Positions 18,101 to 56,211 are shown, numbered from the stretch's first letter. The stretch is 64,000 nucleotides of DNA from an uncultured delta proteobacterium (GCA_903911145.1 CAIWCD010000003.1:642-64641), one strand, 5' to 3'. Program-made: numbers and translations. Notes: generated by a model from the letters alone, not told the origin.

Positions 18101-21100
18101 CCGTCGCCGAGCAGCACGGAGATGTTGCTGCTGTCGCTGTTGGTTGCGACGAGATCGGGCTTTCCATCGCCGTTGAGATCGCCGACCCGAACCTGGCGCG
18201 GCTTCGCGCCGGCACCGTAAAGCGCCGCGGTTGCGAATGAGAGTCCGTCGGCGACCGCGATGTTGGTCGAGGCCTGCGTCGCGCTTCCGAACTGCCCGTC
18301 GATCGCCGCGCGCACGCGCAGCGAGACGCTGGCATTGGTGTGCGGGCCGAAATCGGACGTCGTGTTCCAGAGGAAGGTGTGCGCGACTCCCGCCGGACTC
18401 GTCGTCACTCCAGAGACGCCTGCGCTCGCTCCCAACGCGCTTCCACTCTGCGTCGCACGCGGGTATGGCCCGACGCCGGCGAACCCGTTTCCCGAAGCGT
18501 CGTACTCGATGATGACGTCGACCGGCCACGACTGCCCCTGGCTCACCGTGTAGCTGATCGGCGCGCAGCCGCTCGCGCTGTTTCCCGCGACGGCGAAGCT
18601 CGCGACGTGCGGCGGCCCGAGGATGAACAGAGGGTTTCCACTCGTCGCCAGGCCACCCGGCGTCGTCACCGCGATTGTTCCACTCGTCGCCCCCGCAGGG
18701 ACGGTCGTGCGGATCTGCGTCGCGCTGTCGATGGTGAATGACGTCGCCGAGGTGCCGTGGAACGAGAGCACCGTCGCGCCGCTCAAGTGCGTGCCGTTGA
18801 CGGTGATCGGTGCGCCGACGGGAAGAGCGCTCGCGCTGAAGCGAGTCAGCGATGGCGAAGGAGTGCCGCCGCCCGAACCGCCTGCGCTGCCGCCGCCGGC
18901 CCCGCCGCCACTGCCTCCCCCCGGGCTTCCGCCGCCCGAACCGCCTCCGCTCCCGCCGCCCGGATTCGCCGCGATGAACTTCACGCTGGTCGAGACGGTG
19001 AATGCGTTCTGGCCCGCGCCGATGGTGGCGACGACCGTCTTGCTCTCCGCATCGGTGGAGACGAGCGACGAATCGAACAGCCCCGTCGGGTCGGTCGCTC
19101 CGCCGGCAGGCGTGAATGTGTCGTCCTTGCCGTTCTGCGCGTCGATGATCGAGAGCTGGACTGGCCAATTCCCGACGACGTTGAGGAACCGATCGCAGGC
19201 AGTCACAACGAGGAGCGCGGCGCTGCTCCCGTCAGCGGGGAATGTCTGCCCCCCGTTCGTGCAGATGACGCTTGAGCAGTTCGCAGACGGAGGACCAGCA
19301 ACAAACGGGGCGCTCGCTGTGGCGACGAACGACGAGCTGCCGCTTGCGAGGAGTAGCTCACTCTGCGCCTGAATCACGTTGTCGCCCGCCAGCGTGCTCT
19401 TCACCTCAGAGACGAAGAGCCCGTTCAGATCGGTCACGCCCAACGCTTGCGCGACGCCATTGCTCAGAGAGTCGGACACGAGCACGAGCTGCCCGCTCGC
19501 CGGATTTCCCTGCGCGTCCTCGAGTTGCACGGTCACGGTGTAGTGCGACGAACCATCGGCGATGACCGGACTGCTCGAGCCGGTCACCGTCATGTGCGAT
19601 CTGCTCTGGTCGGGAGGACCGGCGACGAACGTCACCGCCGCAGTCGCGTTGCTCGCCTGCGCGATCGCCGAGACGATCTTGGTCTCCGCCGTCGTCGAGG
19701 AGAGCGTCGCGCTGAAGCTGCCGTTGACGTCCGTGATGCTGCTGATCGTGTTCTTGCCGTTCGCGGCGAAGCTGTCGTGCGCGCCGCTCGCGTTCAGCGT
19801 CACGGCCATTCCAGACACCGGAGTTCCGCTCGCGCTCTTCACCTGCGCGGTCACGACTGCGGTCGCGACTCCATCGGCGACGACCTGCGTGGGCGAGGCG
19901 GAGAGCGTGAGTTGCAGTGAGCTCGCGGTCGGCGTGAAGACGACGGTCGCGCTCGCGATCGCGCTGCTGGCTCCCGCCAGCCCCACGGAAACCGTCTCGC
20001 TCTGCGCCGTCGCCGAGGTGAGCAGAGCGATGAAGATGCCGCCCGCGTTGGTCTGGCCGCTCACCGTGCTGCCGCTATGACCTCCAGCGGAGAACGTGTT
20101 GCCCGTACCGCTCGCAGAGAGCGTCACCGATTGGTTCGCAATCGGATTTCCATTCGAATCGGAGAGCACGACCAGGAGCGAGATGGTTCCGCCGGCCGAC
20201 ACGCTCGACGGGCTCGCGCTGATCGACGATTGAGTCGCGCTCGCCGTACCTGCAATGAAGCTGATGGCCAGAGACGCGGTGAGCGCGCCCGCACTTGCCG
20301 TGACGATCTCGACGCCTGCGCGCCGAGACGAGAGCGCGAGGGAGAACTGGCCCGACGAATCGCTCGTACCGCTGCTGGTCGCGTTCGCGCCATTGCCGCT
20401 CGTGCCCAGCGTGATCGCCTGATTCGCGATCGCGTTGCCGGCCGTGTCCTGCAGCGTCGCCGTCACGGTCGTGGTGGTGCTCCCATCGGCGATGAGCTGG
20501 CTCGGCGATGCCGTGATCGTGAGTCGCTCACCGCCCGGCGAACTGGAGAACGAAACAGGCGCAGAGACGAGCGCACTCGACGCGTTGCCGAGCGTCGCGA
20601 ACACGGTCTCGTTCTGCACCGCGGATGACGTGAGCTGCGCGATGAAGAGCCCGCCGAGATTGGTGCTGCCGCTCACCGTGGCGCCGCTGGCGCTGCCGGC
20701 GTGAAAGGTGTTCGCGGTCCCGGTCGCGGAGAGTGTGAGCGGCTGGCCGGCGAGCGGATTTCCATTCGCGTCGGCGACGATCACCAGGAGCGACACGGTC
20801 CCGCCAGCGGAAACACTCGGCGGACTCACCGTGATCGACGACTGCGTTGCGCTCGCAGGTCCCGCGATGAAGGTCACCACTGTCGACAGCGTCGAAGTGC
20901 TCGCGCCCGCGCCCAGCGTGGCCGTGACGATCTTCGTCTCCGCGCGCAGCGACGCCAGGCTCGCGTGGAATGCGCCGTTCGCGTCGGTCGTCCCACTGCT
21001 GGTCACGCCCGCGTCAGCCTCGCCCGGCGCGAAGAGATTCTCACTGCCGGAGACGCTCAGTTGCACGGTCGCGCCAGAAAAGACGTTGCCGTCGAGATCG

Positions 21101-22527
21101 CGTGCGACGACGTCGATCGAAGCCACCGTCACGCCGTCGGCCACCAGCGCGCTCGGCGTCGCGATGATCGACGACGCGCTGCCGCTCGGTGCACCGGGCG
21201 TGAAGGTGACGATGGTGGAGAGAGAGAGCGACACGGTGCCGCTGATCACCGAGGCGGTGACGGTCTTGTCTCCCGCGACCGTCGACGCGAGCGTCGAGGA
21301 GAACGCACCGTTCAGATCGGTCGCGCCGCTCAAGCTGCTGACCTGGTTGCCCACGCCCGTCACCGAGAGCGCGACCGACTCACCCGTCAGCCGATCTCCC
21401 GCGCAGTCGCGCACCGTTACCGCCAACTGGATGTGCGAGATCCCGTCGGCCTTGGCGATGCTTGGAGTCGCAACGATCGACGACTGGGCCGCGCAGGGTG
21501 CGCCCGGGTTGATGTCGAACGGCGCGCTGGAGGTGCCGGCAAATCCCGCAGCGGTGGCCACCAGCGTGCATCCGCGCGCGGCGCGATCGAGCACGAGATC
21601 AGAGAAGATCGCGATGCCCGCGACGGCACTGATCGCGAGCGTCCCGGAAAGCAGCGCCGCGCCGCTCTGGCCGCTGCAGCCCGCGCCCAGCGCGACCGAG
21701 ACGGTGCCGGTTGCATGCGTGTTGAGATTTCCCTGCGCGTCGTTGAGCGCGACCTGCACGCCCGGCGCGACCGCGATGCCATTGACGACGCCGCTGGGCT
21801 GCACCGCAAACGAGAGTGACGCCGGAGGCCCGGTTGTCACATCGAACGCGGGGCTGTTGACCGCGGCCAATCCATTCGCCGTCGCACCGAGGACGTACCC
21901 CTGCGCGGCCTGCGCGATCGACAGATTCGGAAAGCTCGCGATCCCGTTCACCGCCGCGCTGGTCAAGGTCCCGCCCAGCGTCCCGGCCCGACCCGGCGCG
22001 AGCGCGACCGAGATGGAGGTTCCCGCATCCGCGACCACGTTGCCGAACGAATCCTGGATCGACAGTTCGATCGGCGGCGCGATCACCGTGCCGGCCTGCG
22101 CGCTCGAGGGGGGAATGTTGAACGCAAGCTTCGCCCCCGGCCCGGAGATGAACTCGAGCGAGAGCGGGTGCGCGAGCGCGCTGCCACCGACGATGGTTGC
22201 CGTCACGCTCTTCACGCCCGCGCTGGTGGCGGTCACGCGCGCTGTCGTCCTGCCGCTCGCATCGGTCGCCGCCGCCTGCGTGATCGAGACGCCGGTGCCA
22301 GTCGCGGCCACGGCCACGTGCATCCCCGCGAGCGGCTTCGACTGAGCGTTCACGATCGTCACCGTGATCACCGCGTCGTCAGAGCCGTTCGCGATCAGGC
22401 CGCGCAGGCGATCGCTCGTCACGGTCGACTTGCCAGGATCGGGCGACGGCGACGTCGGCGACGAGCTGCTCGAGCAGGCGACCAGCACCGCGAGCGACAG
22501 AAAGAGAACGAGACGGACGTGCGCCAT
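15139..22527 (-). CDS. giant surface lipoprotein (~2462 aa): tandem Ig-like (Big-type) domains, Gly/Ser linker, IPT/TIG domain, ~20 FG-GAP/VCBS repeats
   Basis: The start was moved to the ATG at 22525-22527 (MAHVRLVLFLSLAVLVACSSS lipobox, SD gaggag 8 nt upstream). Repeated (D/N)xNxDGxxD(L/I)VVAN motifs and repeated ~100-aa T/S/A/V-rich beta domains are present. The 200-aa upstream extension overlaps the divergent gene and was rejected. Confidence 0.9.
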   Translation of the reverse strand: MAHVRLVLFLSLAVLVACSSSSSPTSPSPDPGKSTVTSDRLRGLIANGSDDAVITVTIVNAQSKPLAGMHVAVAATGTGVSITQAAATDASGRTTARVTATSAGVKSVTATIVGGSALAHPLSLEFISGPGAKLAFNIPPSSAQAGTVIAPPIELSIQDSFGNVVADAGTSISVALAPGRAGTLGGTLTSAAVNGIASFPNLSIAQAAQGYVLGATANGLAAVNSPAFDVTTGPPASLSFAVQPSGVVNGIAVAPGVQVALNDAQGNLNTHATGTVSVALGAGCSGQSGAALLSGTLAISAVAGIAIFSDLVLDRAARGCTLVATAAGFAGTSSAPFDINPGAPCAAQSSIVATPSIAKADGISHIQLAVTVRDCAGDRLTGESVALSVTGVGNQVSSLSGATDLNGAFSSTLASTVAGDKTVTASVISGTVSLSLSTIVTFTPGAPSGSASSIIATPSALVADGVTVASIDVVARDLDGNVFSGATVQLSVSGSENLFAPGEADAGVTSSGTTDANGAFHASLASLRAETKIVTATLGAGASTSTLSTVVTFIAGPASATQSSITVSPPSVSAGGTVSLLVIVADANGNPLAGQPLTLSATGTANTFHAGSASGATVSGSTNLGGLFIAQLTSSAVQNETVFATLGNASSALVSAPVSFSSSPGGERLTITASPSQLIADGSTTTTVTATLQDTAGNAIANQAITLGTSGNGANATSSGTSDSSGQFSLALSSRRAGVEIVTASAGALTASLAISFIAGTASATQSSISASPSSVSAGGTISLLVVLSDSNGNPIANQSVTLSASGTGNTFSAGGHSGSTVSGQTNAGGIFIALLTSATAQSETVSVGLAGASSAIASATVVFTPTASSLQLTLSASPTQVVADGVATAVVTAQVKSASGTPVSGMAVTLNASGAHDSFAANGKNTISSITDVNGSFSATLSSTTAETKIVSAIAQASNATAAVTFVAGPPDQSRSHMTVTGSSSPVIADGSSHYTVTVQLEDAQGNPASGQLVLVSDSLSNGVAQALGVTDLNGLFVSEVKSTLAGDNVIQAQSELLLASGSSSFVATASAPFVAGPPSANCSSVICTNGGQTFPADGSSAALLVVTACDRFLNVVGNWPVQLSIIDAQNGKDDTFTPAGGATDPTGLFDSSLVSTDAESKTVVATIGAGQNAFTVSTSVKFIAANPGGGSGGGSGGGSPGGGSGGGAGGGSAGGSGGGTPSPSLTRFSASALPVGAPITVNGTHLSGATVLSFHGTSATSFTIDSATQIRTTVPAGATSGTIAVTTPGGLATSGNPLFILGPPHVASFAVAGNSASGCAPISYTVSQGQSWPVDVIIEYDASGNGFAGVGPYPRATQSGSALGASAGVSGVTTSPAGVAHTFLWNTTSDFGPHTNASVSLRVRAAIDGQFGSATQASTNIAVADGLSFATAALYGAGAKPRQVRVGDLNGDGKPDLVATNSDSSNISVLLGDGTGSFGLAASYDAGTFPFGLALGDLNRDGKLDVVTANNTGNNVSVFLGLGDGGLAAAVNYAAGNGPESVAIGDLDNDGKPDLVVCNFYDNTLSVMLGRGDGTFAAATNFDTAGGASQSVVLGDLNGDGKLDAVVVNRSTHNVSVLLGRGDGSFGQAVNYAVGSFSQAVTIGDINGDGRPDIAASNASDNTVSILLGNGDGTFQAHIDYPSGNFPQSAAIADMNHDGIPDLIAGASVMLGLAGGGFAAPVTYPVSDSTAMTVADVNRDGKLDIVFANLSNNSVSVLLNQEPAACESSLAAPLSERVGSSPSAVLVADFNGDGKPDAVVANAGQPTLAVLLGEGNGRFFAASSLAVNGTPMQLVAGDFDGDGKLDLVAVEGASGDFSFLSGRGDGTFSGAITSTSGNGGVAVAAGDIDGDGISDIVVANSGDNNVVIFKGIAGTGPFNYIGPFPVGRSPDAVALADLNEDGIPDIIVANSADNSISILISDGAGGYAAQVTHPVGNTPMSIAIADLNGDGIPDIAVANQQGNTVSVLRGRGDGTVTDAVDYTVQGVLWSIAIADMNGDGVPDLVVADEFNGDISVLDGVGNGTFGAAAVLASGPRPYSVALADINGDGKMDFLVANHGVDIVSVVLGEGHGTFATVSSFATGSAPDALAMADLNGDGKLDLVVANSNSSSVSILHGNGDGTFAAAVNAAVGAVPSGVAVGDLNGDGIPDLAVSDYNDQSVSVLLGRSNGTYFPAVKYTVPVTPTGITIGDFNGDGKSDLAVVNVNGNNEGLSILLGNGNGTFASAVSYATQGNWPVSVEAADLNGDGKLDLVVVNSGGGASGNQTISVLLGNGDGTFPSVTLYPVGAAPMGVAIADLNGDGKPDLAVCNSGDATVSILLGTGHGTFVNASPATYQVGSGPSAIAVKDMNGDGKPDLVVASGSLSILYGVGDGTFSGASQYPVGSSVAIGVAVGDLDGDGKPDIAITNYGGASAAVVLGR
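18838..18965. repeat. simple-sequence (ccgccgcc / gcc) tract encoding a (GGGS)n-like flexible linker in the giant gene
   Basis: The minus-strand translation is NPGGGSGGGSGGGSPGGGSGGGAGGGSAGGSGGGTPS. Confidence 0.7.
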
Positions 22528-22665
22528 GGTGGCTCCTCGCGTGAGCTTTCGCCGCGGTTGCGCGCGGAGCTTGGGCCATCCGGGTGGAACGGCGTCAAGC
22601 GCAATGAGCAGGTCTCGCTCCCCCGTTGACGCCTCGGGCGTAGGGGAGGAGTGTTTCCGGTCGCG
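22528..22665. promoter_or_regulatory. divergent intergenic region between giant FG-GAP gene and small-paralog array; presumed divergent promoters
   Basis: A 138-bp non-coding gap separates two divergently oriented first codons. It contains TTGACG on the minus strand and a near-miss sigma-54-like TGGAAC-N..GC on the plus strand. Neither is convincing. Confidence 0.3.
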
Positions 22666-23145
22666 ATGATCGATCTGGATACCAGCGCGTGGGCCCGCAT
22701 CGGCGAAACCACCAACACCGAATACTTTGTGATCGAACCGGGCATCGTCGCGGTGGTGCCCCGCAAGGGCGCCATCGACGTGTTCGAGACGGCGCAGGAG
22801 AACGTCAACTTCGTCAATGAGCACGGCCGCCGCGAAGGTCGCCCGGTGGTGATGGTCGTCTTCTTTGATCGGCTTGCGGCGCAGGACAGCTCTGCCCGCA
22901 AGGTCTACAGCGCTGGCCCGGATCCAACCGCCGTCTGTGGAGGCGCGATGCTCGGAGGCGGCCTGCTCGGCCGCGCGGTCGCGAGTGTCTTCCTCGCCAT
23001 CGTCAAGCCCAAGGTCGTGTTCCGGATGTTCGGGGCCTACGATGAAGCGCTCGCGTGGGCGCGATCTCTTCACGCCGCCCAGAGGCCGACGTCCAACCCG
23101 CCCAGCGCGGTCCCCACTCATGATCAAGATCGGCGGCGCGCATGA
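22666..23145 (+). CDS. small paralog A1 of unrecognised ~145-aa family (possibly STAS/SpoIIAA-like fold)
   Basis: MIDLDTSAWARIGETTNTEYFVIEPGIVAVVPRKGAIDVFETAQENVNFVNEHGRREGRPVVMVVFFDRLAAQDSSARKVYSAGPDPTAVCGGAMLGGGLLGRAVASVFLAIVKPKVVFRMFGAYDEALAWARSL. The start context cgcgATGATCG is shared by all copies. The stop overlaps the next start (ATGA). Confidence 0.7.
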   Translation: MIDLDTSAWARIGETTNTEYFVIEPGIVAVVPRKGAIDVFETAQENVNFVNEHGRREGRPVVMVVFFDRLAAQDSSARKVYSAGPDPTAVCGGAMLGGGLLGRAVASVFLAIVKPKVVFRMFGAYDEALAWARSLHAAQRPTSNPPSAVPTHDQDRRRA

Positions 23146-23582
23146 TCGTCGCCGACACCAGCGGCTGGAAGTTCATTGGCGACACGGCCAACGCGAAGCT
23201 CTTCGAGGTGGAGCCCCGGATCGTCGCCGTCGACCCGCGCATCGGCGCGCATGACACAGTCGCGACCGCGACGACGAACCTGGAAGTTGGCTCGCGATAC
23301 CTCGCAAGCTGCGGCGGCGGCATCGTGCTCGTCTACTTCGACCAGCTCGCAGGCCAGGAGTGGGCGGCCCGGCGGGTCTACCGACGCTACGACCCAGCGG
23401 TCTGCTTCGGCCTGGGCCTGATCGGCGGAACCCCTCTCGCCCGCGCGATGATGTCGTTCTTCCTCGGCCTTGCACGCGTCCCGAATCTTCCCACCAAGGT
23501 GTTCGGGAGCGCAGAGGAGGCCGTGCAGTGGGCCCGCGCCAGCATCGGAGCACGCAGCGTGCGCGCGGCGGCGGCCTCGTAG
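23142..23582 (+). CDS. small paralog B1 (subtype B) of same family
   Basis: MIVADTSGWKFIGDTANAKLFEVEPRIVAVDPRIGAHDTVATATTNLEVGSRYLASCGGGIVLVYFDQLAGQEWAARRVYRRYDPAVCFGLGLIGGTPLARAMMSFFLGLARVPNLPTKVFGSAEEAVQWARA. Confidence 0.7.
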   Translation: MIVADTSGWKFIGDTANAKLFEVEPRIVAVDPRIGAHDTVATATTNLEVGSRYLASCGGGIVLVYFDQLAGQEWAARRVYRRYDPAVCFGLGLIGGTPLARAMMSFFLGLARVPNLPTKVFGSAEEAVQWARASIGARSVRAAAAS

Positions 23583-23641
23583 ACCGGACGAGGCGCCTGG
23601 GTTGACGGCTCGTTCGCGAGGGAGGAGTCTCGTCACTCACG

Positions 23642-24088
23642 ATGATCGTTCCGGACACCAGCGGATGGACGCGCGTCGGCGAAACCTCCAACGTCGATTA
23701 CTTCTCCATCGAGCCGGGGCTCCTCGCGATGGTGCCCCACCAGGGAGGCATCGACGGGCGAGAGACGGCGCAGGCCAACTCTCGCTTCGTCAATGAGTAT
23801 GGCCGCCGCGCTGGTCGGCCCATCGTCCTCGTCTCCTACTTTGATGGGACTGCGTCGCTCGATAGCGCAGCCCGCAAGGTCTACAACGACGAGGCAGACC
23901 CCACCAACGTCTGCGGAGCCGCGCTGATCGGCGGCAGCATGCTCGGCCGGGCGATCGCGAACGTCTTTCTCGCCCTCGTCAAGCCGAAGGGCATGGTGTT
24001 TCGCGTGTTCGGGAACTCCAGCGAGGCGCTCGCCTGGGCGCGAAGGCTCTACGCCGCCCAGCATCCCGACGAGCGTGCGTCCGCTTGA
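23642..24088 (+). CDS. small paralog A2
   Basis: MIVPDTSGWTRVGETSNVDYFSIEPGLLAMVPHQGGIDGRETAQANSRFVNEYGRRAGRPIVLVSYFDGTASLDSAARKVYNDEADPTNVCGAALIGGSMLGRAIANVFLALVKPKGMVFRVFGNSSEALAWARRL. The upstream leader is gggaggagtctcgtcactcacgATGATCG. Confidence 0.7.
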   Translation: MIVPDTSGWTRVGETSNVDYFSIEPGLLAMVPHQGGIDGRETAQANSRFVNEYGRRAGRPIVLVSYFDGTASLDSAARKVYNDEADPTNVCGAALIGGSMLGRAIANVFLALVKPKGMVFRVFGNSSEALAWARRLYAAQHPDERASA

Positions 24089-24177
24089 CGTCCGTTGCGA
24101 TGGGGCGCACTCGCGGCGCGGAAGCTCTGGCTGCGCTGGTTGACGCCACATTCGGGAGCGCGGATTCTCCAATCACG

Positions 24178-24609
24178 ATGATCGAGCCCGACATCAGTGG
24201 ATGGACTCGCGTCGGCGCGACCTCCAACGCGGACTACTTCACCGTCGAGCCAGGGATCCTCGCGCTCGTTCCGCACAAGGGCGCCGTGGACGTGCGCGCG
24301 ACCGCGCTCGACAATGCGAACGTCATCAACGACTACGGCCGCCGCGCCGGTCGACCCGTGGCCGTGATTGCCTTCTTTGATCGAATTGGCTCGCTCGATA
24401 GCGCGGCACGCAGGACCTACAGCGAAGAGGCGGATCCAACGACTGTCTGCGCAGTGGCGATGGTCGGCGGCGCCCTGCTCGGCCGCGCGATGGCGAGCGT
24501 ATTCCTCGCCATCGTCAGGCCGCCGGGCCTGCAGTTCCGATTGTTCGGGACCTATGACGAAGCAGTCGCCTGGGGTCGAACGCTCGTCGCAGAACACGGG
24601 GCCGGTTGA
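24178..24609 (+). CDS. small paralog A3
   Basis: MIEPDISGWTRVGATSNADYFTVEPGILALVPHKGAVDVRATALDNANVINDYGRRAGRPVAVIAFFDRIGSLDSAARRTYSEEADPTTVCAVAMVGGALLGRAMASVFLAIVRPPGLQFRLFGTYDEAVAWGRTL. The start was moved to the internal ATG at 24178, matching the other copies. Confidence 0.65.
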   Translation: MIEPDISGWTRVGATSNADYFTVEPGILALVPHKGAVDVRATALDNANVINDYGRRAGRPVAVIAFFDRIGSLDSAARRTYSEEADPTTVCAVAMVGGALLGRAMASVFLAIVRPPGLQFRLFGTYDEAVAWGRTLVAEHGAG

Positions 24610-24645
24610 CCCGTCGATCGCACGGAAGGAGGCTGCTCAATCACG

Positions 24646-24968
24646 ATGATCGACCTGGACACCAGCGGATGGCCGCGGGTCGGCCCGTCGTCGTCGTCGC
24701 CTTCTTCGACCGGACCGCTTCAGGCGATAGCGCTGCCCGCAAGGTCTACAACACCGAGGCGGATCCAACGACCGTGTGCGCAGCCGCGCTGCTGGGCGGA
24801 AGCATGCTCGGCCGCGCGGTCGCAAACGTCTTCCTGGCCATCGTCAAGCCCACGGGAATTCAGTTCCGCGTCTTCGGGGAGTACGACGAGGCACTTGCCT
24901 GGGCGCGAAAGATCTATCTCTCGCAGGGACCGGTCTCGCGCCCGCCGCGCGCTGTCGTTCACCCGTGA
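24646..24968 (+). pseudogene. small paralog A4, disrupted (internal deletion of ~40 codons plus frameshift)
   Basis: It starts MIDLDTSGWPRVG, then shifts frame. The conserved C-terminal half (RPVVVVAFFDRTASGDSAARKVYNTEADPTTVCAAALLGGSMLGRAVANVFLAIVKPTGIQFRVFGEYDEALAWARKI) is read in the frame of ORF 24606. Confidence 0.5.
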
Positions 24969-24986
24969 TCAGGATCGGCGACGCGG

Positions 24987-25427
24987 ATGATCGTTCCTGA
25001 AACCACCGGCTGGAAATTCCTCGTCGAGACGGCCAACGCCAGGCTGTTCGAACCCGAGCCCCGGATCGTCGCGGTCGAGCCGCACCGTGGCGCGCAGGAC
25101 ACGGTTGTGACGGCGACGGCAAATCTGGAAGCGGGCTCACGCCACCTCGCGAGCTGCGGCGGCGGAATCGTGCTCGTCTACTTCGATCTGCTCACGGGCC
25201 AGGAGTGGGGCGCCCGGCGCGTCTACCGCTGCACGGACGCGTCGATCTGCTTCGGGCTGGCGCTGATCGGCGGCACTCCGCTCGCACGCGCGATGATGTC
25301 GTTCTTCCTCGGCCTCGCCCGCGACACGAAGCTTCCAACCAAGGTGTTCGGGAACACGGAGGACGCAGTGAAGTGGGGCCGCGCACTGATCGAGGCGCGC
25401 AGCCAGATGGCAACTGCGTCCACGTAG
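24987..25427 (+). CDS. small paralog B2 (subtype B)
   Basis: MIVPETTGWKFLVETANARLFEPEPRIVAVEPHRGAQDTVVTATANLEAGSRHLASCGGGIVLVYFDLLTGQEWGARRVYRCTDASICFGLALIGGTPLARAMMSFFLGLARDTKLPTKVFGNTEDAVKWGRA. It is about 85% identical to B1. Confidence 0.7.
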   Translation: MIVPETTGWKFLVETANARLFEPEPRIVAVEPHRGAQDTVVTATANLEAGSRHLASCGGGIVLVYFDLLTGQEWGARRVYRCTDASICFGLALIGGTPLARAMMSFFLGLARDTKLPTKVFGNTEDAVKWGRALIEARSQMATAST

Positions 25428-25454
25428 CGAGGTCGCGTCGTTTCGACGAGCCGC

Positions 25455-25910
25455 TCACTGCAGGCAGAGGCGCTCGAGGCGCGCGGCCAATTCGGTCATG
25501 CTCTCACTGCTCGACGAGATCTCGAGCGGAGCAAGCTCCTCGCGCAGCCGCTGCTCCCTCGCCGCATTGTCGAGATCCGCGCAGAGCAGGGCCGGCAGCA
25601 GCTCGCCGCGCAGGCGCAGCGCACGCAGCATCACCAGCCCCTGAACCGGAGCGAGCTGCGCGGCCGTCTCGGCAAGCGCGGGCGCGCCGTCCACATCGAC
25701 GAGCGCAGCAGCGGGCGTTCGGGAAAAGTCGAGATCGAAGACCAGCATAGAGGGTCGCACGCCGCTCTCCGGAGCGAGCTTCGCGAGCAGCTCGGCGAAC
25801 GAGCCGGCCCGCTCGAACTGGAAATGCGCGCCGAGCAAGCGGCTGAACCGTTCGCTGTACTCGTCGCCATCTTCGGCGATCAGCACGCGCGGCAACCTGC
25901 TCTCGCTCAT
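25455..25910 (-). CDS. stand-alone response-regulator receiver domain protein
   Basis: The 151-aa product MSESRLPRVLIAEDGDEYSERFSRLLGAHFQFERAGSFAELLAKL...SMLVFDLDF is receiver-like. Its start overlaps the kinase stop (ATGA at 25907-25910). The start was moved from 25991. Confidence 0.7.
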   Translation of the reverse strand: MSESRLPRVLIAEDGDEYSERFSRLLGAHFQFERAGSFAELLAKLAPESGVRPSMLVFDLDFSRTPAAALVDVDGAPALAETAAQLAPVQGLVMLRALRLRGELLPALLCADLDNAAREQRLREELAPLEISSSSESMTELAARLERLCLQ

Positions 25911-28900
25911 GCGCCGTCTCGAGGAAAGCAGAGGATGACCGACTTGCAGAGCGGCGCCGCCTCCTGCGCGATGCGGACGTGGCCTTGCCACTCGCGGACG
26001 AGATCGCGCACCAGCGCCAGCCCCCGTCCTCCCTCTCGGGCTGCGATCGCCTCGAGCGTCAGCGGCAGCGGCGAGGAGTCAGCGATGTGCAGCTCCGCCA
26101 CGATCCGACCCGCAGCGTCCTCCACTTCGCGCACGCGGACGAGCAGGTGTGGCGCGGGCGAGCGCGCGGCGGCCGCTTCGGCATTGCGCAGCAGATTCGC
26201 GAACAGACCAGAGAGCGCTTCCTCCGAGACGGGAAACGCGACCTCGAGACCTTGCAGCTCGAGCGCGGGCGCGACGAAGGGAGAACCGGATGCGCGAAGC
26301 TCGGCCTCGATGCCGCGGATCCAGTCGGTCAGCCTGCGACCATCGAGTTGCGTGCGCGGCCCCATCCGCAGAAGCGCGCCGAGCCGCTCCCCGTGCGTAC
26401 GAACGCGCGAGGCCACCGCGCGGATGCGCGCATCGCCCGGCCCTTCCGGCTTCTCGAGCTGCGCCTCGGCCAGTCGCAGATCGCGCCAGAGCGCGCCAAA
26501 CACCGGCTCGCGCCAGAGTGGACGCAGCGCGAGCCGACTCGCCTTCATCACGTTCGAGTAGGCGTCGGAGATCTGCTGCGACGCTGGCCGACCGCCGGCG
26601 AGCGAACGCGCGATCTCCGCTCTGGGCGCGGTCCCCAGCATCGCCAGCGCACTCGCGCGGTGCTTGAGCGCGTCGTGGCGAACCTCGGCCACCGCGCGCA
26701 CCACTGCAGGAAACAGAGAGGGATCGCGCAAGAGCGCCTTCTCGAGTGTGGAGCCGCGAACGAGCAGGAGGAAGAGTGCGGCCATCGCGGCGAGCACCAA
26801 CGCGGCCGCGCCGAACAGGCGCGTGCGCCGCTTCTCGGCGGCGACCAGATGAACTGCGTCGAGCCGCTGCTGCAGCGCGCGCGCGCCGGCGAGACCTGGC
26901 TCGATGAAGCCGGGCGCGGCTGGCGCGGACAGAAAGGCAGTCACTGCCGCGAGCGCCTCGTCGTTGCGACCAGCGGCCGCGAGAACACGGGCCTGCGCGA
27001 GCTGTGCCGCGGGGATCTCTGCGTGCGCTGCGCTCTCGAGAAGTGCTGCCGTGCGCGCCGGACCGATGAGCGCGTCGACCGGCGCACGCGCGGCCGCGCG
27101 GGAGAAGCGCAGCAGCGTTTCGCGCTCGCCGGGGGCGCGCTCCAGTGCAGCCTGGTAACAGCCGAGAGCGAGAACAATCTCGCCGTGCAGATCATTGGCG
27201 ATGCCGAGCGCGAGCAGCTCGTCGGCATCGGCCGGCGCAGAAGCACCAATGCAGGCGCCGCCCAGCGACGCGAGCAGCTGCGCAGGCTGGCCGTCTGCGA
27301 GCTGCGCGCGCGCGAGCCGCATCGCCGGACTCTCTGCCTGCGCGGAGACCAATCGCGCGCGCAGCGCCTGCACCTCATCGGGATGATCGAGCGCCTCGCC
27401 CGCAGCGACCGCAGCCGAGAGATCCTCCAGAGCCAGGGCCGCGCTCCCTTCGCTTGCCCGCAGTCGTGCGCGCAGCAGACGCGCCTCTGCGTTTCCCAGT
27501 TCGGCCGCTCGCTCAATCCAGTGGCGGGCCAGCGCTGCAGCCGCAGAAGCGTCTCGCGCCTCCTTTGCGTCGCTCCCCGCGTCGGAGCCCACCCTCCCGT
27601 CTCGCGCGGACTCCGGCGACTCCGCACTCTCTGGCGAGCGGAGCGATTCACGGAGCGCTGCGCCTTGCACCGCCGCTGCAAGCCGCACCAGCCCCGCGCC
27701 ATCCGCGTCGAGTGCACGCGCGGTCTCGTCGGGAGCCGGCCCACCGAGCACCCAGCGCAGCGCCGCCGCCTCGACCAGCGTGGGTGAATCGATCAGCGCG
27801 CGCTCGAGCAGGCCCAGCGCGGCCGAGCGATTTCCCGCCGCCTCCTGCTCCTTTGCCTCGCGCATCAACTGGCGACCCAGCGGAGTCGGTTCCGGTGCAG
27901 CCGTCCGCTCCTCGGGAGCCGTCTCCTGCTGCGTGCGGGCAGTGGCGAGAAGCGCGGAGAGTGGCGCGGGGAGCGGCTCTGCGCGCGCGGCGAGTTCGCG
28001 CTGCACATTCCCCAGTGCACGCAGAGCCTCCTGCGAATGGCCTGCTCTCAAGAGCAGCCGCGCACGGGCAGCCCACAGCTCGCTCCACGCCGGCTCGAGC
28101 GCGAGTGCACGCTGCAGCGCCTCGTCCGCACGCTGCGCCTCGAAGGGTCCACCGTGCTCGGCCAGCGTCTCGCCCAGAAGCCGCCACGCGCCGGCGTGCA
28201 GCGGGTCGAGCCGCAGCAGCGACTCAAGCGCCGCGACTGCGTCGTCGAGGCGGCCCTGGGCGATCAGCGCGCGCGAGGCCAGCCAGCGCGGACCGCGCCA
28301 TCCTGGATGCAGAGAGGAGAGGCGGCGCGCCTCGGCGAGAGCGGTCGACGGATCGCGCGCGAGTTCGCGCTCAGCTTGATCGAGCGCGGTCGCGAACTCG
28401 ACGCTGATCGAGGGCTCTGGCCACGCGTCAATCGCGCTCGACCGGGTGCGCTCCGCCTCGCCCGCATCGATCGACTGCGTAAGCGCCTGCGCCCGGCGCG
28501 CCTGTGCCGCAGAGAGCGAAAGGCCTCTCGCCGCATCGATGCGGGCACGCGCCGCCGCGTGATTCCCTGCACTCTCCTCGACGCCAGCGAGTGCGAGCAG
28601 AATTCCCGCGCGCCCGTTGCGCCCGTTCGGCGTGCTCTTCGCCTGGCGTGCGAGTCCGCTCTCCAGCAGCCGCACCAGACCCTCCTTCTCCTCGCGCGAG
28701 AGCGGATGCGCGCTCTTCATCGCGGCGAGATTTGCGTAGGCATACCAGCGCGCGGGCTCAAGTTTGATGGCCCGCCGGAACATCTGCTCGGCGTCAACTG
28801 CGCGGCCAAGCCGCTGGTAGGCGATGCCAAGATCAGTGGCGATCGCCGCATTCGTCGGCGCGTGCGTGAGCTCTCCTTCGAGCAGCGCCGCAGCCTCGCC

Positions 28901-29017
28901 CGGCTTGCCGCTTCCAAGCAGCCGCACCGCTCGCGCAGCCGCGGGACTTGCGCGCACCATGACTGGCGCGATGGCCACCAGCGCGGCCGCGAGAGCGATC
29001 GATCGCGCACGCATCAC
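25907..29017 (-). CDS. TPR-repeat sensor histidine kinase (signal peptide, long TPR region, one TM, C-terminal HATPase_c)
   Basis: The N-terminus MMRARSIALAAALVAIAPVMVRASPAAA is signal-like. It has about 700 aa of Ala/Leu/Arg-rich TPR-like helices, a TM helix LFGAAALVLAAMAALFLLLV, an H-box-like EVRHDALKHRASALAML, an N-box LFANLLRNA and a G-box GGRGLALVRDLV. Confidence 0.8.
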   Translation of the reverse strand: MMRARSIALAAALVAIAPVMVRASPAAARAVRLLGSGKPGEAAALLEGELTHAPTNAAIATDLGIAYQRLGRAVDAEQMFRRAIKLEPARWYAYANLAAMKSAHPLSREEKEGLVRLLESGLARQAKSTPNGRNGRAGILLALAGVEESAGNHAAARARIDAARGLSLSAAQARRAQALTQSIDAGEAERTRSSAIDAWPEPSISVEFATALDQAERELARDPSTALAEARRLSSLHPGWRGPRWLASRALIAQGRLDDAVAALESLLRLDPLHAGAWRLLGETLAEHGGPFEAQRADEALQRALALEPAWSELWAARARLLLRAGHSQEALRALGNVQRELAARAEPLPAPLSALLATARTQQETAPEERTAAPEPTPLGRQLMREAKEQEAAGNRSAALGLLERALIDSPTLVEAAALRWVLGGPAPDETARALDADGAGLVRLAAAVQGAALRESLRSPESAESPESARDGRVGSDAGSDAKEARDASAAAALARHWIERAAELGNAEARLLRARLRASEGSAALALEDLSAAVAAGEALDHPDEVQALRARLVSAQAESPAMRLARAQLADGQPAQLLASLGGACIGASAPADADELLALGIANDLHGEIVLALGCYQAALERAPGERETLLRFSRAAARAPVDALIGPARTAALLESAAHAEIPAAQLAQARVLAAAGRNDEALAAVTAFLSAPAAPGFIEPGLAGARALQQRLDAVHLVAAEKRRTRLFGAAALVLAAMAALFLLLVRGSTLEKALLRDPSLFPAVVRAVAEVRHDALKHRASALAMLGTAPRAEIARSLAGGRPASQQISDAYSNVMKASRLALRPLWREPVFGALWRDLRLAEAQLEKPEGPGDARIRAVASRVRTHGERLGALLRMGPRTQLDGRRLTDWIRGIEAELRASGSPFVAPALELQGLEVAFPVSEEALSGLFANLLRNAEAAAARSPAPHLLVRVREVEDAAGRIVAELHIADSSPLPLTLEAIAAREGGRGLALVRDLVREWQGHVRIAQEAAPLCKSVILCFPRDGA

Positions 29018-30765
29018 GAGCCGGCTCCGCGAAGATCGCGCACGCGGATGCCGAGCTGGTTCATCCGCAAATGCACCTGCCGCGCCGTTGCGCCCGCGCC
29101 GAGCAGCTCCCTCCCCACCGCCTCCAGATCGCCCTCGTGCTCATCGAAAAGCGCGCGCAGATACTGCCGCTCCACTTCTGCCGAGACCTCGGCGAACGAC
29201 GTCTGCGCCGCGAGCTGAACCTCGACCGCGCGACCACCACCGGACCGCGCACGCGTCTTGAGCCGTGCACCCGAGGCCCGCCGCGGCGCGATGAGCTGGG
29301 CAATCAGAGCATCGGAGAGCTGGAGGATCGCGGGCGCGCGTGGCGAGAGATCAGCGCGCGGCCTGTCTGGGCGCGGCTGCGCGCTGTCGGGCTCGGTCGC
29401 ATCGAGCGCGAGCGAGAGCGCCGAGACGAGCGCATTGATCGCGAGCAGGCGCAGCTCGCGGTGATTGCCGGGCCAGGCGTGCCGCTCGAGGTGCTGCAAC
29501 GAATCGCGAGAGAGAAAGACCGCGAACGCATCGCGCGGAGCGACGCGCACCGAGGGCCGGCCGAACGCGACGAGGCTGTGCTCCTCGACGAAATCCTCCG
29601 GCGTCGGACAGCGCGCGAGGTACTGGCGCACCAGCGGCCGCAGCGCCTGGCTGCGCAGCGCCTCGAGAAGCGCAAAGCGAAGCAGCTCTGGAAGATCCTC
29701 GCGCCGCTCACGCAGCGGCGGCACATGCAGCCGCATCGCCGGGTTCAGGCGCATGTAGAGGTCCTGCCGAAACCGTCCCTGCGCAACCAGCGCTGCGAGA
29801 TCCTGGTTGGTGGCGGCGATCAATCTCGGCTGTGCACTGCGTGGCTTTGCGTCACCCAGCCGCACAACCGTTCCGCGCTCGAGGACGAGGAGCAGTTGCC
29901 GCTGCAGGTCGAGATCGAGGTTGCCGATCTCGTCGAGAAAGAGCGTTCCCTCGTGGGCCTGCTCGAAGACGCCAGCGTGATCCTCGGTCGCTCCGGTGTA
30001 GGCGCCGCGCCGCGCGCCGAACAGGTGCGCAGGCAGCAGGTCCGCAGGAACAGTCGAGAGGTCGGTCACGACGAGCGGCCCCCGCACACCCGAGCGTGCG
30101 TGCAGCACATGCTCCGCGAGGAAGCTCTTGCCGCATCCGGTCTCGCCCTCGATCAGCACCGGCAGCGGCGAGCGCACGAGCAGCCGCATCTGGCGGCGCA
30201 GCTCGGCCATCGCGCGGCTCTTGCCCCAGAAGACCTCGCCGTCCTGCGCGCGGTGGTGCAGTTCGAGCGCGCGCGTGATCTCGGCGGCGAGCGTGCGGCT
30301 GTCGACCACCTCGTTCTCGCAGAGATAGACGAGCGGATCGCGCGCATCGGCGTGCCCGAGTTCCTCCGCGGTGGTCGTCAGCAGCACCACCGGCAGCGCT
30401 GGAAAACGAGTGCGCAGCCTCTCCAGAATGTAGAGTCCCTGCCTCCGCCGCAGTTGCTCGATCGCCTGCGCGCGCGCCCGTCCTGCGCCAAGGAGCGACT
30501 TGTCGTCGGGCAGCAGCCGCTCTTCTGGCAGCGCAAAATGGAGGTCGAGCACCACCAGATCGGGCAGCGGCCCCTGCGCCGCGAGCGCACTCTCGGCCTC
30601 CTGCCAGTCGTGCGCGCAGCGCAGCGTGCAGCCGCGCTCACGTTCTTCGCAGACCTGGCAAGGAATGCTCTTTCCGCAGCGGGTGACGGTGTCGAACTGC
30701 GGCAGGCGGCGCTGCAGCATATCGATGGTCTGGTCGCGATCGTCGATGACAAAGAGGCGCGGCAT
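29014..30765 (-). CDS. sigma-54-dependent transcriptional activator (NtrC family) with Cys-cluster-containing receiver-like N-domain
   Basis: The AAA+ core has GETGCGKS, DEIGNLDLDLQRQLLLVL and ESELFG-like GAFTGA-region motifs (FGARRGAYTGATEDHAGVFEQA). A C-terminal HTH is present. The N-domain carries C-x5-C-x2-C-x6-C-x3-C. The stop overlaps the kinase start. Confidence 0.9.
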   Translation of the reverse strand: MPRLFVIDDRDQTIDMLQRRLPQFDTVTRCGKSIPCQVCEERERGCTLRCAHDWQEAESALAAQGPLPDLVVLDLHFALPEERLLPDDKSLLGAGRARAQAIEQLRRRQGLYILERLRTRFPALPVVLLTTTAEELGHADARDPLVYLCENEVVDSRTLAAEITRALELHHRAQDGEVFWGKSRAMAELRRQMRLLVRSPLPVLIEGETGCGKSFLAEHVLHARSGVRGPLVVTDLSTVPADLLPAHLFGARRGAYTGATEDHAGVFEQAHEGTLFLDEIGNLDLDLQRQLLLVLERGTVVRLGDAKPRSAQPRLIAATNQDLAALVAQGRFRQDLYMRLNPAMRLHVPPLRERREDLPELLRFALLEALRSQALRPLVRQYLARCPTPEDFVEEHSLVAFGRPSVRVAPRDAFAVFLSRDSLQHLERHAWPGNHRELRLLAINALVSALSLALDATEPDSAQPRPDRPRADLSPRAPAILQLSDALIAQLIAPRRASGARLKTRARSGGGRAVEVQLAAQTSFAEVSAEVERQYLRALFDEHEGDLEAVGRELLGAGATARQVHLRMNQLGIRVRDLRGAGS

Positions 30766-30768
30766 CGC

Positions 30769-31155
30769 TCAGCCCCGCTTCGCAGGCGTGGGTCCGGAAA
30801 GCTCCGCGGTGAGCGCGGCAAAGAGCGCCTCGAGGCGCAGAACCTTGCCCAGCGCGGGCGCGAGCGGATGAGGAGCCGACGCGGCGGCCATCGCCTCCTC
30901 CAGCGCGTGGGCGAACTGGTCGAGGGAAGCTGCGGAGAGCGCCGCTGGCGCGCTGGTGCGCAACTCGGCGAAGAGCGCGCGCGCATCGCAGCGGCTTCCA
31001 TCCTCAGCGCAGAGCGCGAACAGGCCCTCGCGCAGCGCCTGCAGATCGCGCGGAGTCGGTGACCTTGCGCTCTCTAGCAACTCGGAAATGTCGCGCGCCG
31101 GCCAGAGAGCCCGCTTGAGCAGATCGTGCCGCAGCCGCGAAAGCCAGGGGTGCAT
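30769..31155 (-). CDS. hypothetical protein (128 aa) immediately upstream of the activator gene
   Basis: GC3-biased. It ends 3 nt before the activator start. No domain recognised. Confidence 0.4.
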   Translation of the reverse strand: MHPWLSRLRHDLLKRALWPARDISELLESARSPTPRDLQALREGLFALCAEDGSRCDARALFAELRTSAPAALSAASLDQFAHALEEAMAAASAPHPLAPALGKVLRLEALFAALTAELSGPTPAKRG

Positions 31156-44004: not shown

Positions 44005-44080
44005 CCGCGCCGGATCCCAATACAACACGATCAAGAGCGGCGTTGGCGTGGCTCCAACTCCATTGACGAGGCGAACCACC

Positions 44081-55191: not shown

Positions 55192-56211
55192 TTACTCGAC
55201 GCTCGCGGCGATCTCCACCAACTCCGGATAGGTCAGGTTGGACAGCAGCATCAGACTGGTCCCGTGTCGTCGCCAACTGAGCGTCGTGTAGCTGCCGAGA
55301 AGGTTCATATACCCAGTGCAGTCACCAACCGTCACCTGCTTGCCCGTGGCTGGCACGACGTCCACCGATTGGCGCATCTCCGTCAGCGAGAGCCAGTGCG
55401 GCCCGCTTCCCATGACCAGGGTTGCGTTCGGGACTGCCTCGTGATCCAGAATCACGCGCTGAACTTCATACCCATCCGGGAGCGATCGAGGAGCGACCAG
55501 CGTGAGGTCGAGTTGCTTGTTGGCCTCGTCGAGCGTCACGCCCTTCCCGGTGAGATTCCAGTCGAGAACCGTTGCGTCCGCTGGATAGTCCAATGTGAAT
55601 CCGCGCGCGGGAAGTGGAACGTCATAGTCGACTGACTCGTACTGCATCTCATACCAGGGCGTTCCAGGGGATTCGAAGACCGTGAGCCTGAGTGGAATGC
55701 CGCGCTCCTGATCCATCCAGGAGTCATAACCATACCGGTAAGGTGCAGCATCGCGCGGCTCGACTACCCAGCGCGTCGCCTCATGGCCGGCGACCGTCGC
55801 GTCGCCGATGCGCGAATATCGAAACTGTCTCAGACCAGAAAGCGTCTGCTCGCGCACAAGACTCTTCCAGTCATCCTCGCTCGGCGCAGGAAGTCCGGTG
55901 ATGCGCAGTCCAAAGCGTGTGGCCGGCCACCAGAGAGAGACCGTCTCCCCGTCGTAGACGAACAGCTGGCCCGCCAGGGCAGCCGGCGCAATCACTTCGA
56001 CGCGCACCTTGGAGAGTTTCTGATACCAGACGTCCTTGACCAGATCGGCTTGTGGATCGTCGAGCAGCACATGCCGTTCGACCAGATGGCCATGGAAGCT
56101 TTCGATGGAGAGCTGCTGGTTTGATACCCGCCGCGCCACCATCCGGGCGACCAGCGGTGTGCATCCCGTCAGGAGGAAGACCGCGACCAGCGCAGCTCCG
56201 CTCGCTCTCAT
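55192..56211 (-). CDS. LolA/RseB-like lipoprotein (339 aa)
   Basis: AALVAVFLLTGC has a lipobox. It is a paralog of the next gene, with a LolA-like N-domain. Confidence 0.55.
   Translation of the reverse strand: MRASGAALVAVFLLTGCTPLVARMVARRVSNQQLSIESFHGHLVERHVLLDDPQADLVKDVWYQKLSKVRVEVIAPAALAGQLFVYDGETVSLWWPATRFGLRITGLPAPSEDDWKSLVREQTLSGLRQFRYSRIGDATVAGHEATRWVVEPRDAAPYRYGYDSWMDQERGIPLRLTVFESPGTPWYEMQYESVDYDVPLPARGFTLDYPADATVLDWNLTGKGVTLDEANKQLDLTLVAPRSLPDGYEVQRVILDHEAVPNATLVMGSGPHWLSLTEMRQSVDVVPATGKQVTVGDCTGYMNLLGSYTTLSWRRHGTSLMLLSNLTYPELVEIAASVE

Follow-up and report, generated by a model that had tools for sequence, protein, structure and literature searches.

A six-gene tandem array of DUF7793 proteins with a predicted STAS fold and a probable role in kinase regulation

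The window analyzed here, a stretch of 64,000 nucleotides from an uncultured delta proteobacterium, carries six homologous genes on the plus strand at positions 22666-25427, in the order A1-B1-A2-A3-psiA4-B2, with five of them intact. This agrees with the original prediction of a six-gene tandem array containing one degraded copy, but the two subtypes that were described there as alternating run A-B-A-A-psiA-B. Copy-versus-copy tblastn searches connected the units at E-values of 1e-16 to 1e-68 and detected no further copy across the whole 64 kb. A1 (22666-23145) encodes a 159-aa subtype A protein with a C-terminal tail ending in THDQDRRRA, and was annotated as a STAS-fold DUF7793 protein using Pfam and alignments. 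The ATG of B1 (23142-23582; 146 aa, subtype B) lies within the A1 stop codon, giving the expected ATGA overlap, which suggests translational coupling. A2 (23642-24088; 148 aa, subtype A) has its own GGGAGGAG ribosome-binding site. The start of A3 (24178-24609; 143 aa, subtype A) is ambiguous, with upstream alternatives at 24100 (an ATG, chosen by the gene caller) and at 24085 (a TTG, where the ORF begins); we favor 24178 because of homology and the start context common to the copies. ATGATCG was indeed present at all six starts, but the preceding tcacg, which includes the cacg also proposed to be shared, was found only at A2, A3, and A4. The last gene, B2 (24987-25427; 146 aa, subtype B), is 73% identical to B1 in amino-acid sequence.

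DNA alignment, tblastn, and gene calling all identified psiA4 (24646-24968) as a degraded subtype A copy. It lacks 139 nt (residues ~10-56), a deletion that shifts the frame, removes strands 1-4 and helix 1, and is flanked by imperfect direct repeats (CGCGC(T)GGTCGGC). The frame-shifted ORF from 24646 extends to 24990, and an ATG made at the deletion junction (24669) opens a 99-aa ORF that corresponds to the C-terminal two thirds of the protein. In the alignments, the sequence joining A4 to B2 was homologous to that joining A1 to B1. Amino-acid identity was 57-62% among the A copies and 37-48% between subtypes, and the distinct middle section ascribed to subtype B (ASCGGGIVLVYFD..GQEW) was present. 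The duplications had been taken to be recent, which is at odds with a dS of 0.5-0.8 and a nucleotide identity of 73-79% between copies; dN/dS within subtypes was 0.29-0.57. We read no signal peptide or membrane segment in the array proteins, and all are single-domain. The array is a lineage-specific tandem expansion of small cytoplasmic proteins of the family DUF7793.

A divergent 138-bp spacer (22528-22665), which contains the A1 GGGGAGGAG ribosome-binding site, separates A1 from a giant FG-GAP lipoprotein gene on the minus strand (15139-22527), as predicted. The gene call and Pfam gave a 2462-aa product with nine Big_1/invasin Ig-like domains and 21 FG-GAP repeats. Neither a sigma-70-like promoter nor an intrinsic terminator was detected in our scan of 22300-25700. 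It is tempting to connect the array with this giant adhesin gene, but our results do not support it. Three giant surface-protein genes occupy about a third of the window, so that a place beside one of them is expected by position alone, and the nearness of the two is positional.

On its other side, the array faces a convergent three-gene operon on the minus strand (25458-30765), which is a candidate partner in cis. Its gene at 25458-25910 encodes a 151-aa protein with no Pfam match that is receiver-like only from reading its sequence. The gene at 25907-29017 encodes a TPR protein (Pfam TPR families) with a signal peptide, a transmembrane segment, a cytoplasmic part (window 25910-26779), and a divergent C-terminal GHKL ATPase, for which the Pfam matches to HATPase_c (E 0.0098) and the RsbW-type HATPase_c_2 (E 0.019) were both sub-threshold. 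The third gene (29014-30765) encodes a sigma-54 activator (Sigma54_activat, 2.4e-52) with a weak N-terminal receiver (Response_reg, E 0.0012, sub-threshold). The window ORFs scanned included no RsbW/SpoIIAB-type kinase above the Pfam threshold and neither a PP2C phosphatase nor a sigma factor. Pfam identified no RsbT-like gene among the neighbors of the array.

The original prediction considered the family unrecognised; judged by sequence, however, the array copies are members of DUF7793 (PF25056), a Pfam domain of unknown function. A1 scored 27.8 bits against a gathering score of 26 bits, and B1, A2, A3, and B2 fell just under this cut-off at 23.2-25.1 bits (E 2e-5 to 8e-5), with A2 (P0001) assigned PF25056.2 in the database's precomputed annotation. 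The relationship is reciprocal, as a profile built from the window copies retrieved 73 proteins at E <= 1e-5, every one of which (73/73) carries PF25056. Residues A43, A77-R78, Y81, R103-A104, and W132 (A2 numbering) are invariant in the five intact copies and invariant or nearly so in 68-127 relatives. The DUF7793 family profile also matched PDB chain 3bl4_A (6.5e-11), a solved and uncharacterised structure. The array proteins agree with the family in size (~140 aa) and single-domain build, and the intact copies retain its invariant R78, A77, R103, and W132. A word-seeded search with A2 alone returned just five proteins, and an exhaustive HMM search was needed to reveal the family, which comprises at least 956 clusters at 50% identity from genomes and metagenomes. 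One candidate member, P0133 (534 aa, with seven apparent stretches), was a false positive and is an Ig-like repeat protein. No copy had an NCBIfam match, and our literature search returned nothing on DUF7793 (PF25056) or on 3BL4 together with STAS, and no experimental data on any DUF7793 member.

Structural models indicated that the array proteins fold like STAS/SpoIIAA domains, as had been guessed: a central beta-sheet is packed by four helices, and the models have significant similarity to solved STAS domains. Structural matches included SpoIIAA, RsbV, and RsbS, although sequence identity to SpoIIAA and RsbV was 7-14%. Two DUF3478 structures (2q3l and 2ook) were among the best matches, and the SiaC structures 6kko (E 2.8e-3), 6kkp, and 7e6g were found among the Foldseek matches. 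In the models, helix 2 begins at A2 residue 75, placing D74-S75 of the DS(A/S)ARK site at the helix N-terminus. This serine, which had been proposed as a conserved phosphorylation site, is Asp-Ser with its neighbor in the A copies and Glu-Trp in the B copies, where Trp replaces Ser. Only 15 of 127 relatives have Ser at position 75 (35 have A, 34 R, and 14 K), and position 74 is usually Asp, which itself makes a good helix cap.

The genes surrounding distant homologues were examined at eleven loci, picked on the length of contig available. A signalling enzyme opening with a soluble HAMP-like module abutted, overlapped, or diverged from the DUF7793 gene in 10 of these, and most had no giant protein beside the gene. 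Several of the partners are orthologous to each other (49-52% identical), and the loci are therefore not fully independent. In five cases the kinase is downstream, overlapping or adjacent (L003, L006, L014, L016, L017), in four it is a divergent kinase of ~330 aa (L008, L010, L013, L018), and in L015 two DUF7793 copies are followed by a protein with two HAMP-like modules, PAS, and GGDEF. The exception, L012, has a PAS-GGDEF-EAL neighbor and no HAMP-like partner. Set against the number of HAMP modules, the DUF7793 copy count was 2/2 in L015 and L017, 1/2 in L003, and 1/1 in seven loci. In P0076, DUF7793 is fused to a HAMP-like segment and HisKA-HATPase.

The partner enzymes end in HisKA-HATPase, with or without PAS and receiver domains, or in a GGDEF cyclase, and share the N-terminal motif RxxxGDFxxR...D.LAF.VN.T.EEL. 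An HMM of this motif built without L017 and L018 recovered the partner enzymes of these two loci (E 1e-16 to 1e-25) and had no other match in any flank. Pfam HAMP was the top or only match for 5 of 10 partner N-terminal segments, below Pfam's threshold. We saw no dedicated Ser/Thr kinase or phosphatase genes near the DUF7793 homologues at the distant loci. A 126-aa gene upstream of the L003 copy was considered as a hidden second copy and proved to encode a membrane protein, not DUF7793. Searching genome contigs for loci with an alignment designated A5 (an alignment label, not a gene) gave only L015 and L016, and no confirmed locus came from A2 alone in genome contigs or from alignment A5 in metagenome contigs.

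While the other DUF7793 loci examined nearly always have a HAMP-like kinase or cyclase, the partner-motif HMM found none in the 64-kb window (best E 0.076), and the closest two relatives, L002 and L005, had none in their short contigs. The window array is thus an orphan expansion, and its clade may have changed partner or function. L005 has only two DUF7793 copies between the same flanking genes, with the divergent giant-lipoprotein arrangement and the convergent TPR operon both kept. The next relative, L002, differs in its neighbors, a TIG lipoprotein and a hybrid kinase.

This linkage and fusion suggest that DUF7793 serves HAMP-led transducers as a STAS-type input or regulatory subunit that can be detached, and the array proteins probably regulate kinases instead of assisting the giant surface protein. 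We consider it fairly probable that the array as a whole is a lineage-specific expansion of a STAS-fold family that regulates HAMP-led transducers, acting in trans or on the TPR system. A DUF7793 protein would bind its transducer and set the transducer's output, with the binding surface predicted on the conserved face at the N-termini of helices 2 and 3, where the QDxxARxVY and GG[ST]xLxRA motifs lie. The logic would be that of HsbA, BgrV, and SiaC controlling partner enzymes, or of RsbS/RsbR holding RsbT. Because no HAMP-led partner is encoded in cis, the five intact copies probably act in trans, where they could feed a transducer whose gene lies elsewhere, as alternative or heteromeric (A+B) inputs; otherwise, they may act on the adjacent TPR sensor-kinase/sigma-54 system. 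A bolder version, which we hold as a tentative possibility, is that DUF7793 is an undescribed STAS-fold input class that drives cytoplasmic HAMP directly, in place of transmembrane helices, with the A/B array providing combinatorial inputs that compete for one transducer and possibly control the sigma-54 system and the surrounding surface proteins. That DUF7793 is paired with, or fused to, soluble HAMP-led kinases and cyclases gives the family a testable role and bears on what supplies signals to cytoplasmic HAMP domains lacking a membrane sensor.

Bacteria repeatedly use stand-alone STAS proteins to switch enzymes and sigma factors, and the known cases work through Ser/Thr phosphorylation. 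Diguanylate cyclases are regulated by HsbA and BgrV, both of them STAS proteins, and the cyclase SiaD by the STAS-related SiaC (PMC8457831). DUF7793 resembles HsbA of P. aeruginosa, BgrV of S. meliloti, and SiaC (DUF1987) in being a small stand-alone STAS-type protein encoded beside the enzyme it would control, and L015 likewise pairs two DUF7793 genes with a GGDEF cyclase. Those systems, however, need Ser/Thr phosphorylation and a dedicated kinase and phosphatase, whereas DUF7793 has no conserved Ser/Thr. The likeness to SiaC is structural only, with no DUF1987 Pfam match at E <= 1 and no SiaA/SiaB-type counterparts. In the stressosome, the paralogous STAS proteins RsbR and RsbS co-assemble, but the array has neither an RsbT-type kinase nor an RsbR-type N-terminal sensor domain.

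Since the family does not conserve the DS(A/S)ARK serine and subtype B lacks it, regulation by binding or by a ligand is more likely than regulation by serine phosphorylation, and classical phospho-dependent partner switching is unlikely. In that scheme the A copies would serve as anti-sigma or anti-kinase antagonists, with a GHKL serine kinase phosphorylating this serine, and the B copies (EW) would be non-phosphorylatable. The fold matches to SpoIIAA, RsbV, and RsbS, the modeled location of D74-S75 at the helix 2 N-terminus where SpoIIAA has S58 (a position taken from the SpoIIAA sequence checked against 1auz), and the weak HATPase_c_2 match in the neighboring TPR protein are all consistent with it. 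However, the equivalence of the serine and S58 is known only within one position, as the alignment of the family profile with SpoIIAA alone by hhalign had a probability of 0.1, and the Asp usual at position 74 could cap the helix by itself. The array also differs from SpoIIAA and RsbV in having no DSSG motif and no SpoIIAB/RsbW kinase, PP2C phosphatase, or sigma factor nearby, and the partners across the family are histidine kinases and cyclases, not serine kinases. We regard as rather unlikely, though somewhat less so, a model in which the array regulates the convergent TPR sensor kinase, receiver, and sigma-54 activator in cis, binding the divergent GHKL domain in the way that SpoIIAA does SpoIIAB. 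The end of the operon lies 27 bp from B2, STAS-GHKL binding is established (1tid and 6m36 are among the structural matches), the DUF7793 family is linked to kinases generally, and L005 has the same arrangement. However, L005 is too closely related for its gene order to count (flanking proteins 75-86% identical), L002 has other neighbors, the TPR protein has no HAMP-like module of the kind found in all other partners, and the array and operon are convergent and therefore not co-transcribed.

Two further readings were considered. DUF3478 proteins have been proposed to carry hydrophobic compounds, and no link to kinases was reported for them (PMC2954197). The array proteins could similarly be soluble proteins that carry or sense a small ligand, hydrophobic or anionic, with kinase signalling optional. 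In addition to the DUF3478 structures among the best matches, the family member P0104 matches PF11964 (SpoIIAA-like, formerly DUF3478) at 2e-14, and two invariant arginines and a Gly-rich loop at helix N-termini would be typical of anion sites. The window copies themselves match PF11964 only at E 0.23 (A3), and by itself a ligand role does not account for the close association and fusion of the family with HAMP-led kinases, although it is compatible with a ligand-sensing input role; as a full account we find this quite unlikely. The proposal that the array proteins serve the giant Ig/FG-GAP lipoprotein as chaperones, export factors, or tethers is very improbable. The divergent adjacency in L005 and the large secreted repeat proteins near some homologues (the L002 TIG lipoprotein, an upstream NHL propeller in L015, TSP3/Big_9 in L008) speak for it, but the absence of a signal peptide or membrane segment, the share of the window taken up by giant genes, and the distant homologues, which keep a kinase or cyclase and not an adhesin, speak against it. 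We also know of no precedent for the STAS fold as a secretion chaperone. Of the roles originally suggested, a signalling component thus survives as the best reading and a chaperone or export partner does not.

The presence of several copies in the array follows a habit of the family. Multi-copy use of DUF7793 also occurs in the two-copy operons of L015 and L017 and in proteins with 2x-4x fused domains (P0010, P0061, P0104). At the other loci examined there are one or two copies, or repeats that are fused, whereas the array has six unfused units in two subtypes, making it a natural case for studying adaptor diversification and possible mixed sets of paralogues.

Six homologous units lie on the + strand at 22666-25427, matching one another by tblastn with E-values of 1e-16 to 1e-68, and the same search found no additional copy across the 64 kb. 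Five are intact, three of subtype A (A1, 22666-23145; A2, 23642-24088; A3, 24178-24609) and two of subtype B (B1, 23142-23582; B2, 24987-25427), and one A-type unit is truncated (A4 or psiA4, 24646-24968). These searches and alignments bear out the original prediction of a six-unit tandem array with one degraded copy, but the subtypes do not strictly alternate as proposed, the actual order being A-B-A-A-psiA-B. Protein identity is 57-62% among the A-type copies, 73% between B1 and B2, and 37-48% between the types. What chiefly sets the B type apart is the loop ahead of strand 3 (ASCGGGIVLVYFD), along with QEW in place of the A-type (L/Q)DS. A start context of cacgATGATCG had been claimed for every copy; ATGATCG does begin all six units, but the upstream TCACG is found only at A2, A3, and A4. 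Because these three have both TCACG and a GGAGG-type ribosome-binding site in common, the leader was part of the duplicated unit. The ATGA overlap predicted to join the end of A1 to the start of B1 is present, and its homology to the A4-B2 junction points to a probable joint duplication of an A-B pair.

The array had been assigned to an unrecognised family, yet each of the five intact copies matches Pfam PF25056 (DUF7793), A1 at 27.8 bits and the other four at 23-25 bits (cut-off, 26 bits). A profile made from the window copies retrieved 73 proteins, every one of them annotated with PF25056, and when 1.8 billion representatives were searched exhaustively by profile, 956 clusters matched at E <= 1e-3, with 146 remaining at E <= 1e-10. 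Wherever a match had a source name, it was "hypothetical protein". The family profile matched one solved chain, 3bl4_A (E 6.5e-11), deposited as "uncharacterized protein", and no mention of DUF7793 or PF25056 was found in the literature searched. DUF7793 is a named but uncharacterised Pfam family. Some single polypeptides contain two, three, or four DUF7793 repeats (P0010, P0061, P0104, P0132, and P0142); the C-terminal part of P0104 reads by eye as a receiver plus a PilZ-like domain (RxxxR and DxSxxG motifs), neither of which was detected with Pfam.

A tentative guess at a STAS/SpoIIAA fold was confirmed by AlphaFold models of both subtypes, A2 (pLDDT 87, pTM 0.83) and B1 (pLDDT 95.8, pTM 0.90), which have a common topology of three to four N-terminal strands, helix-strand units, and a long C-terminal helix. 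Structural matches were the STAS structure 4xs5 (values 11.3 / 12.6), SLC26 STAS (9iar, 10.4 / 11.6), SpoIIAA (1tid, 9.6 / 10.6), RsbS (6jhk, 9.3 / 10.6), RsbR (7b0u, 8.7 / 9.7), and DUF3478 (2q3l, 10.0 / 9.4). Foldseek agreed with the STAS-type matches and added SiaC and MlaB, and P0104, with three DUF7793 repeats, matched the Pfam "SpoIIAA-like" model at 2e-14.

The same prediction pointed to a phosphorylatable serine in the DS(A/S)ARK motif. In the models, helix 2 begins at residue 75 (A2 numbering), with D74-S75 at its N-terminus, which in SpoIIAA is the site of the phospho-serine, S58. If a short hhalign match to SpoIIAA (sequence checked against PDB 1auz) is extended without gaps, D74 rather than S75 would face S58, in an approximate register. 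Residue 75 is not conserved, being A in 35, R in 34, S in 15, and K in 14 of 127 relatives, and the B-type copies have E-W at positions 74-75; the phospho-serine idea is not supported. Residue 74 in the same relatives (D 70, T 23, S 15) resembles the pattern expected of a helix cap. Residues conserved across the family are A43, A77-R78, Y81, W132, and a loop ahead of helix 3 (G97-G98-[ST]-x-L-x-R103-A104); R78 is invariant in a 68-sequence alignment and kept in 125 of the 127 relatives.

The main interest of these genes is the company their family keeps, more than the array itself. We examined every distant homologue with a sufficiently long contig available, 11 loci in all. Single DUF7793 genes precede a 2xHAMP-like-PAS-HisKA-HATPase-receiver kinase (L003), overlap a HAMP-like-PAS-HisKA-HATPase-receiver kinase (L006) or a 305-310-aa HAMP-like-HisKA-HATPase kinase (L014, L016), or are divergent from such a kinase of 327-350 aa (L008, L010, L013, L018). 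Two copies, overlapping each other, precede an overlapping 2xHAMP-like hybrid kinase in L017, and two precede a 2xHAMP-like-PAS-GGDEF cyclase in L015. Only L012, with one copy and an upstream PAS-GGDEF-EAL gene, is without a HAMP-like partner. In P0076, DUF7793 is naturally fused to a HAMP-like segment and HisKA-HATPase. All partners share the N-terminal motif hhxxhxRhxxGDFxxR....D..D.LAFhVN.T.EEL. Pfam HAMP was the top or sole match for five of the 10 partner segments, spanning nearly the whole model, but these matches were below threshold (E 0.0013-0.028), and we therefore call the module HAMP-like. A profile HMM of the motif, made before L017 and L018 were added, matched the partners in both (E 1e-16 to 1e-25), with no further match in the flanks searched. 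With a partner at 10 of 11 distant loci plus one fusion, the adjacency is far above chance, although several partners are mutually orthologous (49-52% identity). From the family as a whole we infer a detachable subunit of STAS type, with an input or regulatory role in soluble HAMP-led transducers. DUF7793 genes and HAMP-like modules in the partner tend to be equal in number, two to two in L015 (9576-11715) and L017 (1227-3617) and one to one at seven loci, which hints at one adaptor per module; L003 (1610-4095), with one gene and two modules, is an exception.

No description of this DUF7793-HAMP pairing was found in the literature searched, and it is apparently undescribed. In working logic, DUF7793 comes closest to STAS-only regulators, which bind the enzyme encoded next to them and control it. 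SpoIIAA/RsbV and RsbS/RsbR follow the same logic with GHKL kinases. The STAS-only proteins HsbA and BgrV control diguanylate cyclases, and the STAS-related SiaC controls SiaD (PMC8457831). DUF7793 departs from these systems in having no conserved phospho-site, no serine kinase and PP2C phosphatase alongside it, and a HAMP-led histidine kinase as its partner. For DUF3478, a related SpoIIAA-like family, a role as carrier of hydrophobic compounds has been proposed (PMC2954197), and ligand sensing by DUF7793 would be compatible with a role as input subunit.

The array departs from this pattern, as the partner-motif HMM found no partner in the 64-kb window (best E 0.076), nor on the short contigs of the two closest relatives. 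The only canonical kinase of the window (60632-62725) is 35 kb from the array. The nearest signalling genes, on the - strand and convergent to the array, may be a local partner. They encode a protein of 151 aa without a Pfam match, whose sequence reads as receiver-like; a TPR-repeat protein of 1036 aa that has a signal peptide, a transmembrane segment, and a very divergent GHKL domain (sub-threshold HATPase_c E 0.0098, HATPase_c_2 E 0.019); and a sigma-54 activator whose receiver match is weak. The one point in their favour is that the same gene order occurs in L005, a relative too close to be informative. The region 25458-31155 (- strand) is a possible unusual two-component operon, with an additional 128-aa ORF without Pfam matches; its TPR protein, a predicted periplasmic sensor with one transmembrane segment, has a possible H-box (AEVRHDALKH) and no HisKA match. 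In a rough neighbour-joining tree without support values, the second gene of each two-copy operon (L015 and L017) falls with the A clade, and the B clade branches deeply on its own, a placement that would fit two different paralogues working together. The description that fits the array best is a lineage-specific expansion, now orphan, within a family of STAS-fold adaptors that usually partner a HAMP-led kinase or cyclase.

The suggested tie to giant adhesins was not supported. None of the array proteins has a signal peptide, and most distant loci lack a giant gene nearby. Three predicted giant surface-protein genes, at 15139-22527 (2462 aa, Big_1/invasin domains and 21 FG-GAP repeats), 37441-44004 (2187 aa, RCC1-like propellers), and 43988-51556 (2522 aa, TIG/Big_1 domains), the last two overlapping by 17 nt, occupy about a third of the window, so an array adjoining one of them is unremarkable. 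Secreted repeat proteins do turn up, in a loose pattern, around some homologues (L002, L008, and L015).

Relative to A1-A3, DNA alignment shows that A4 has lost 139 nt, which removed strands 1-4 and helix 1 and shifted the reading frame. Imperfect direct repeats (CGCGC-GTCGGC and CGCGCTGGTCGGC) bound the deletion, which would fit slippage or microhomology-mediated deletion. From the original ATG (24646), the ORF continues in the wrong frame to a stop at 24990, within an ATGA that overlaps the start of B2 and mirrors the A1-B1 arrangement. A 1-nt indel in the A4 tail, relative to A1, returns the shifted frame to the ancestral ...DQDRRR(A/G)* tail. Given this tail and the overlap, the remnant might serve as a leader ORF that still couples translation of B2. 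The deletion junction also generated an ATG at 24669 (GG-ATG-GCC), opening a 99-aa ORF (24669-24968, + strand) that covers the C-terminal two-thirds of the STAS fold, which public gene calls annotate and which scores weakly for DUF7793. With half of the sheet missing, this fragment is unlikely to fold, and we retain "pseudogene" as the best label.

Recent duplication is contradicted by dS values of 0.5-0.8 within subtypes, and dN/dS of 0.29-0.57 indicates purifying, though relaxed, selection on the intact copies. A close relative, represented by the JGI metagenome contig L005, has the same flanking genes (protein identity 85% for the giant lipoprotein, 86% for the TPR protein, and 75% for the receiver-like protein). 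Between them are two A-type copies (L005:3003-3931) and neither a B type nor a pseudogene. Between A2 and the L005 copy L005b, dS (0.44) lies inside the range of the flanking genes (0.37-0.58) but dN is higher (0.20 versus 0.08-0.17), and the family thus evolves somewhat faster than its neighbours. With two copies in L005 and six units in the window, copy number varies between close relatives and changes quickly. Elsewhere in the window, and unrelated to the array, are a probably over-extended 416-aa ORF (1407-2657) whose C-terminal 90 aa match addiction-module antidote/HTH_3 and a 339-aa MucB/RseB-like protein (55192-56211, - strand).
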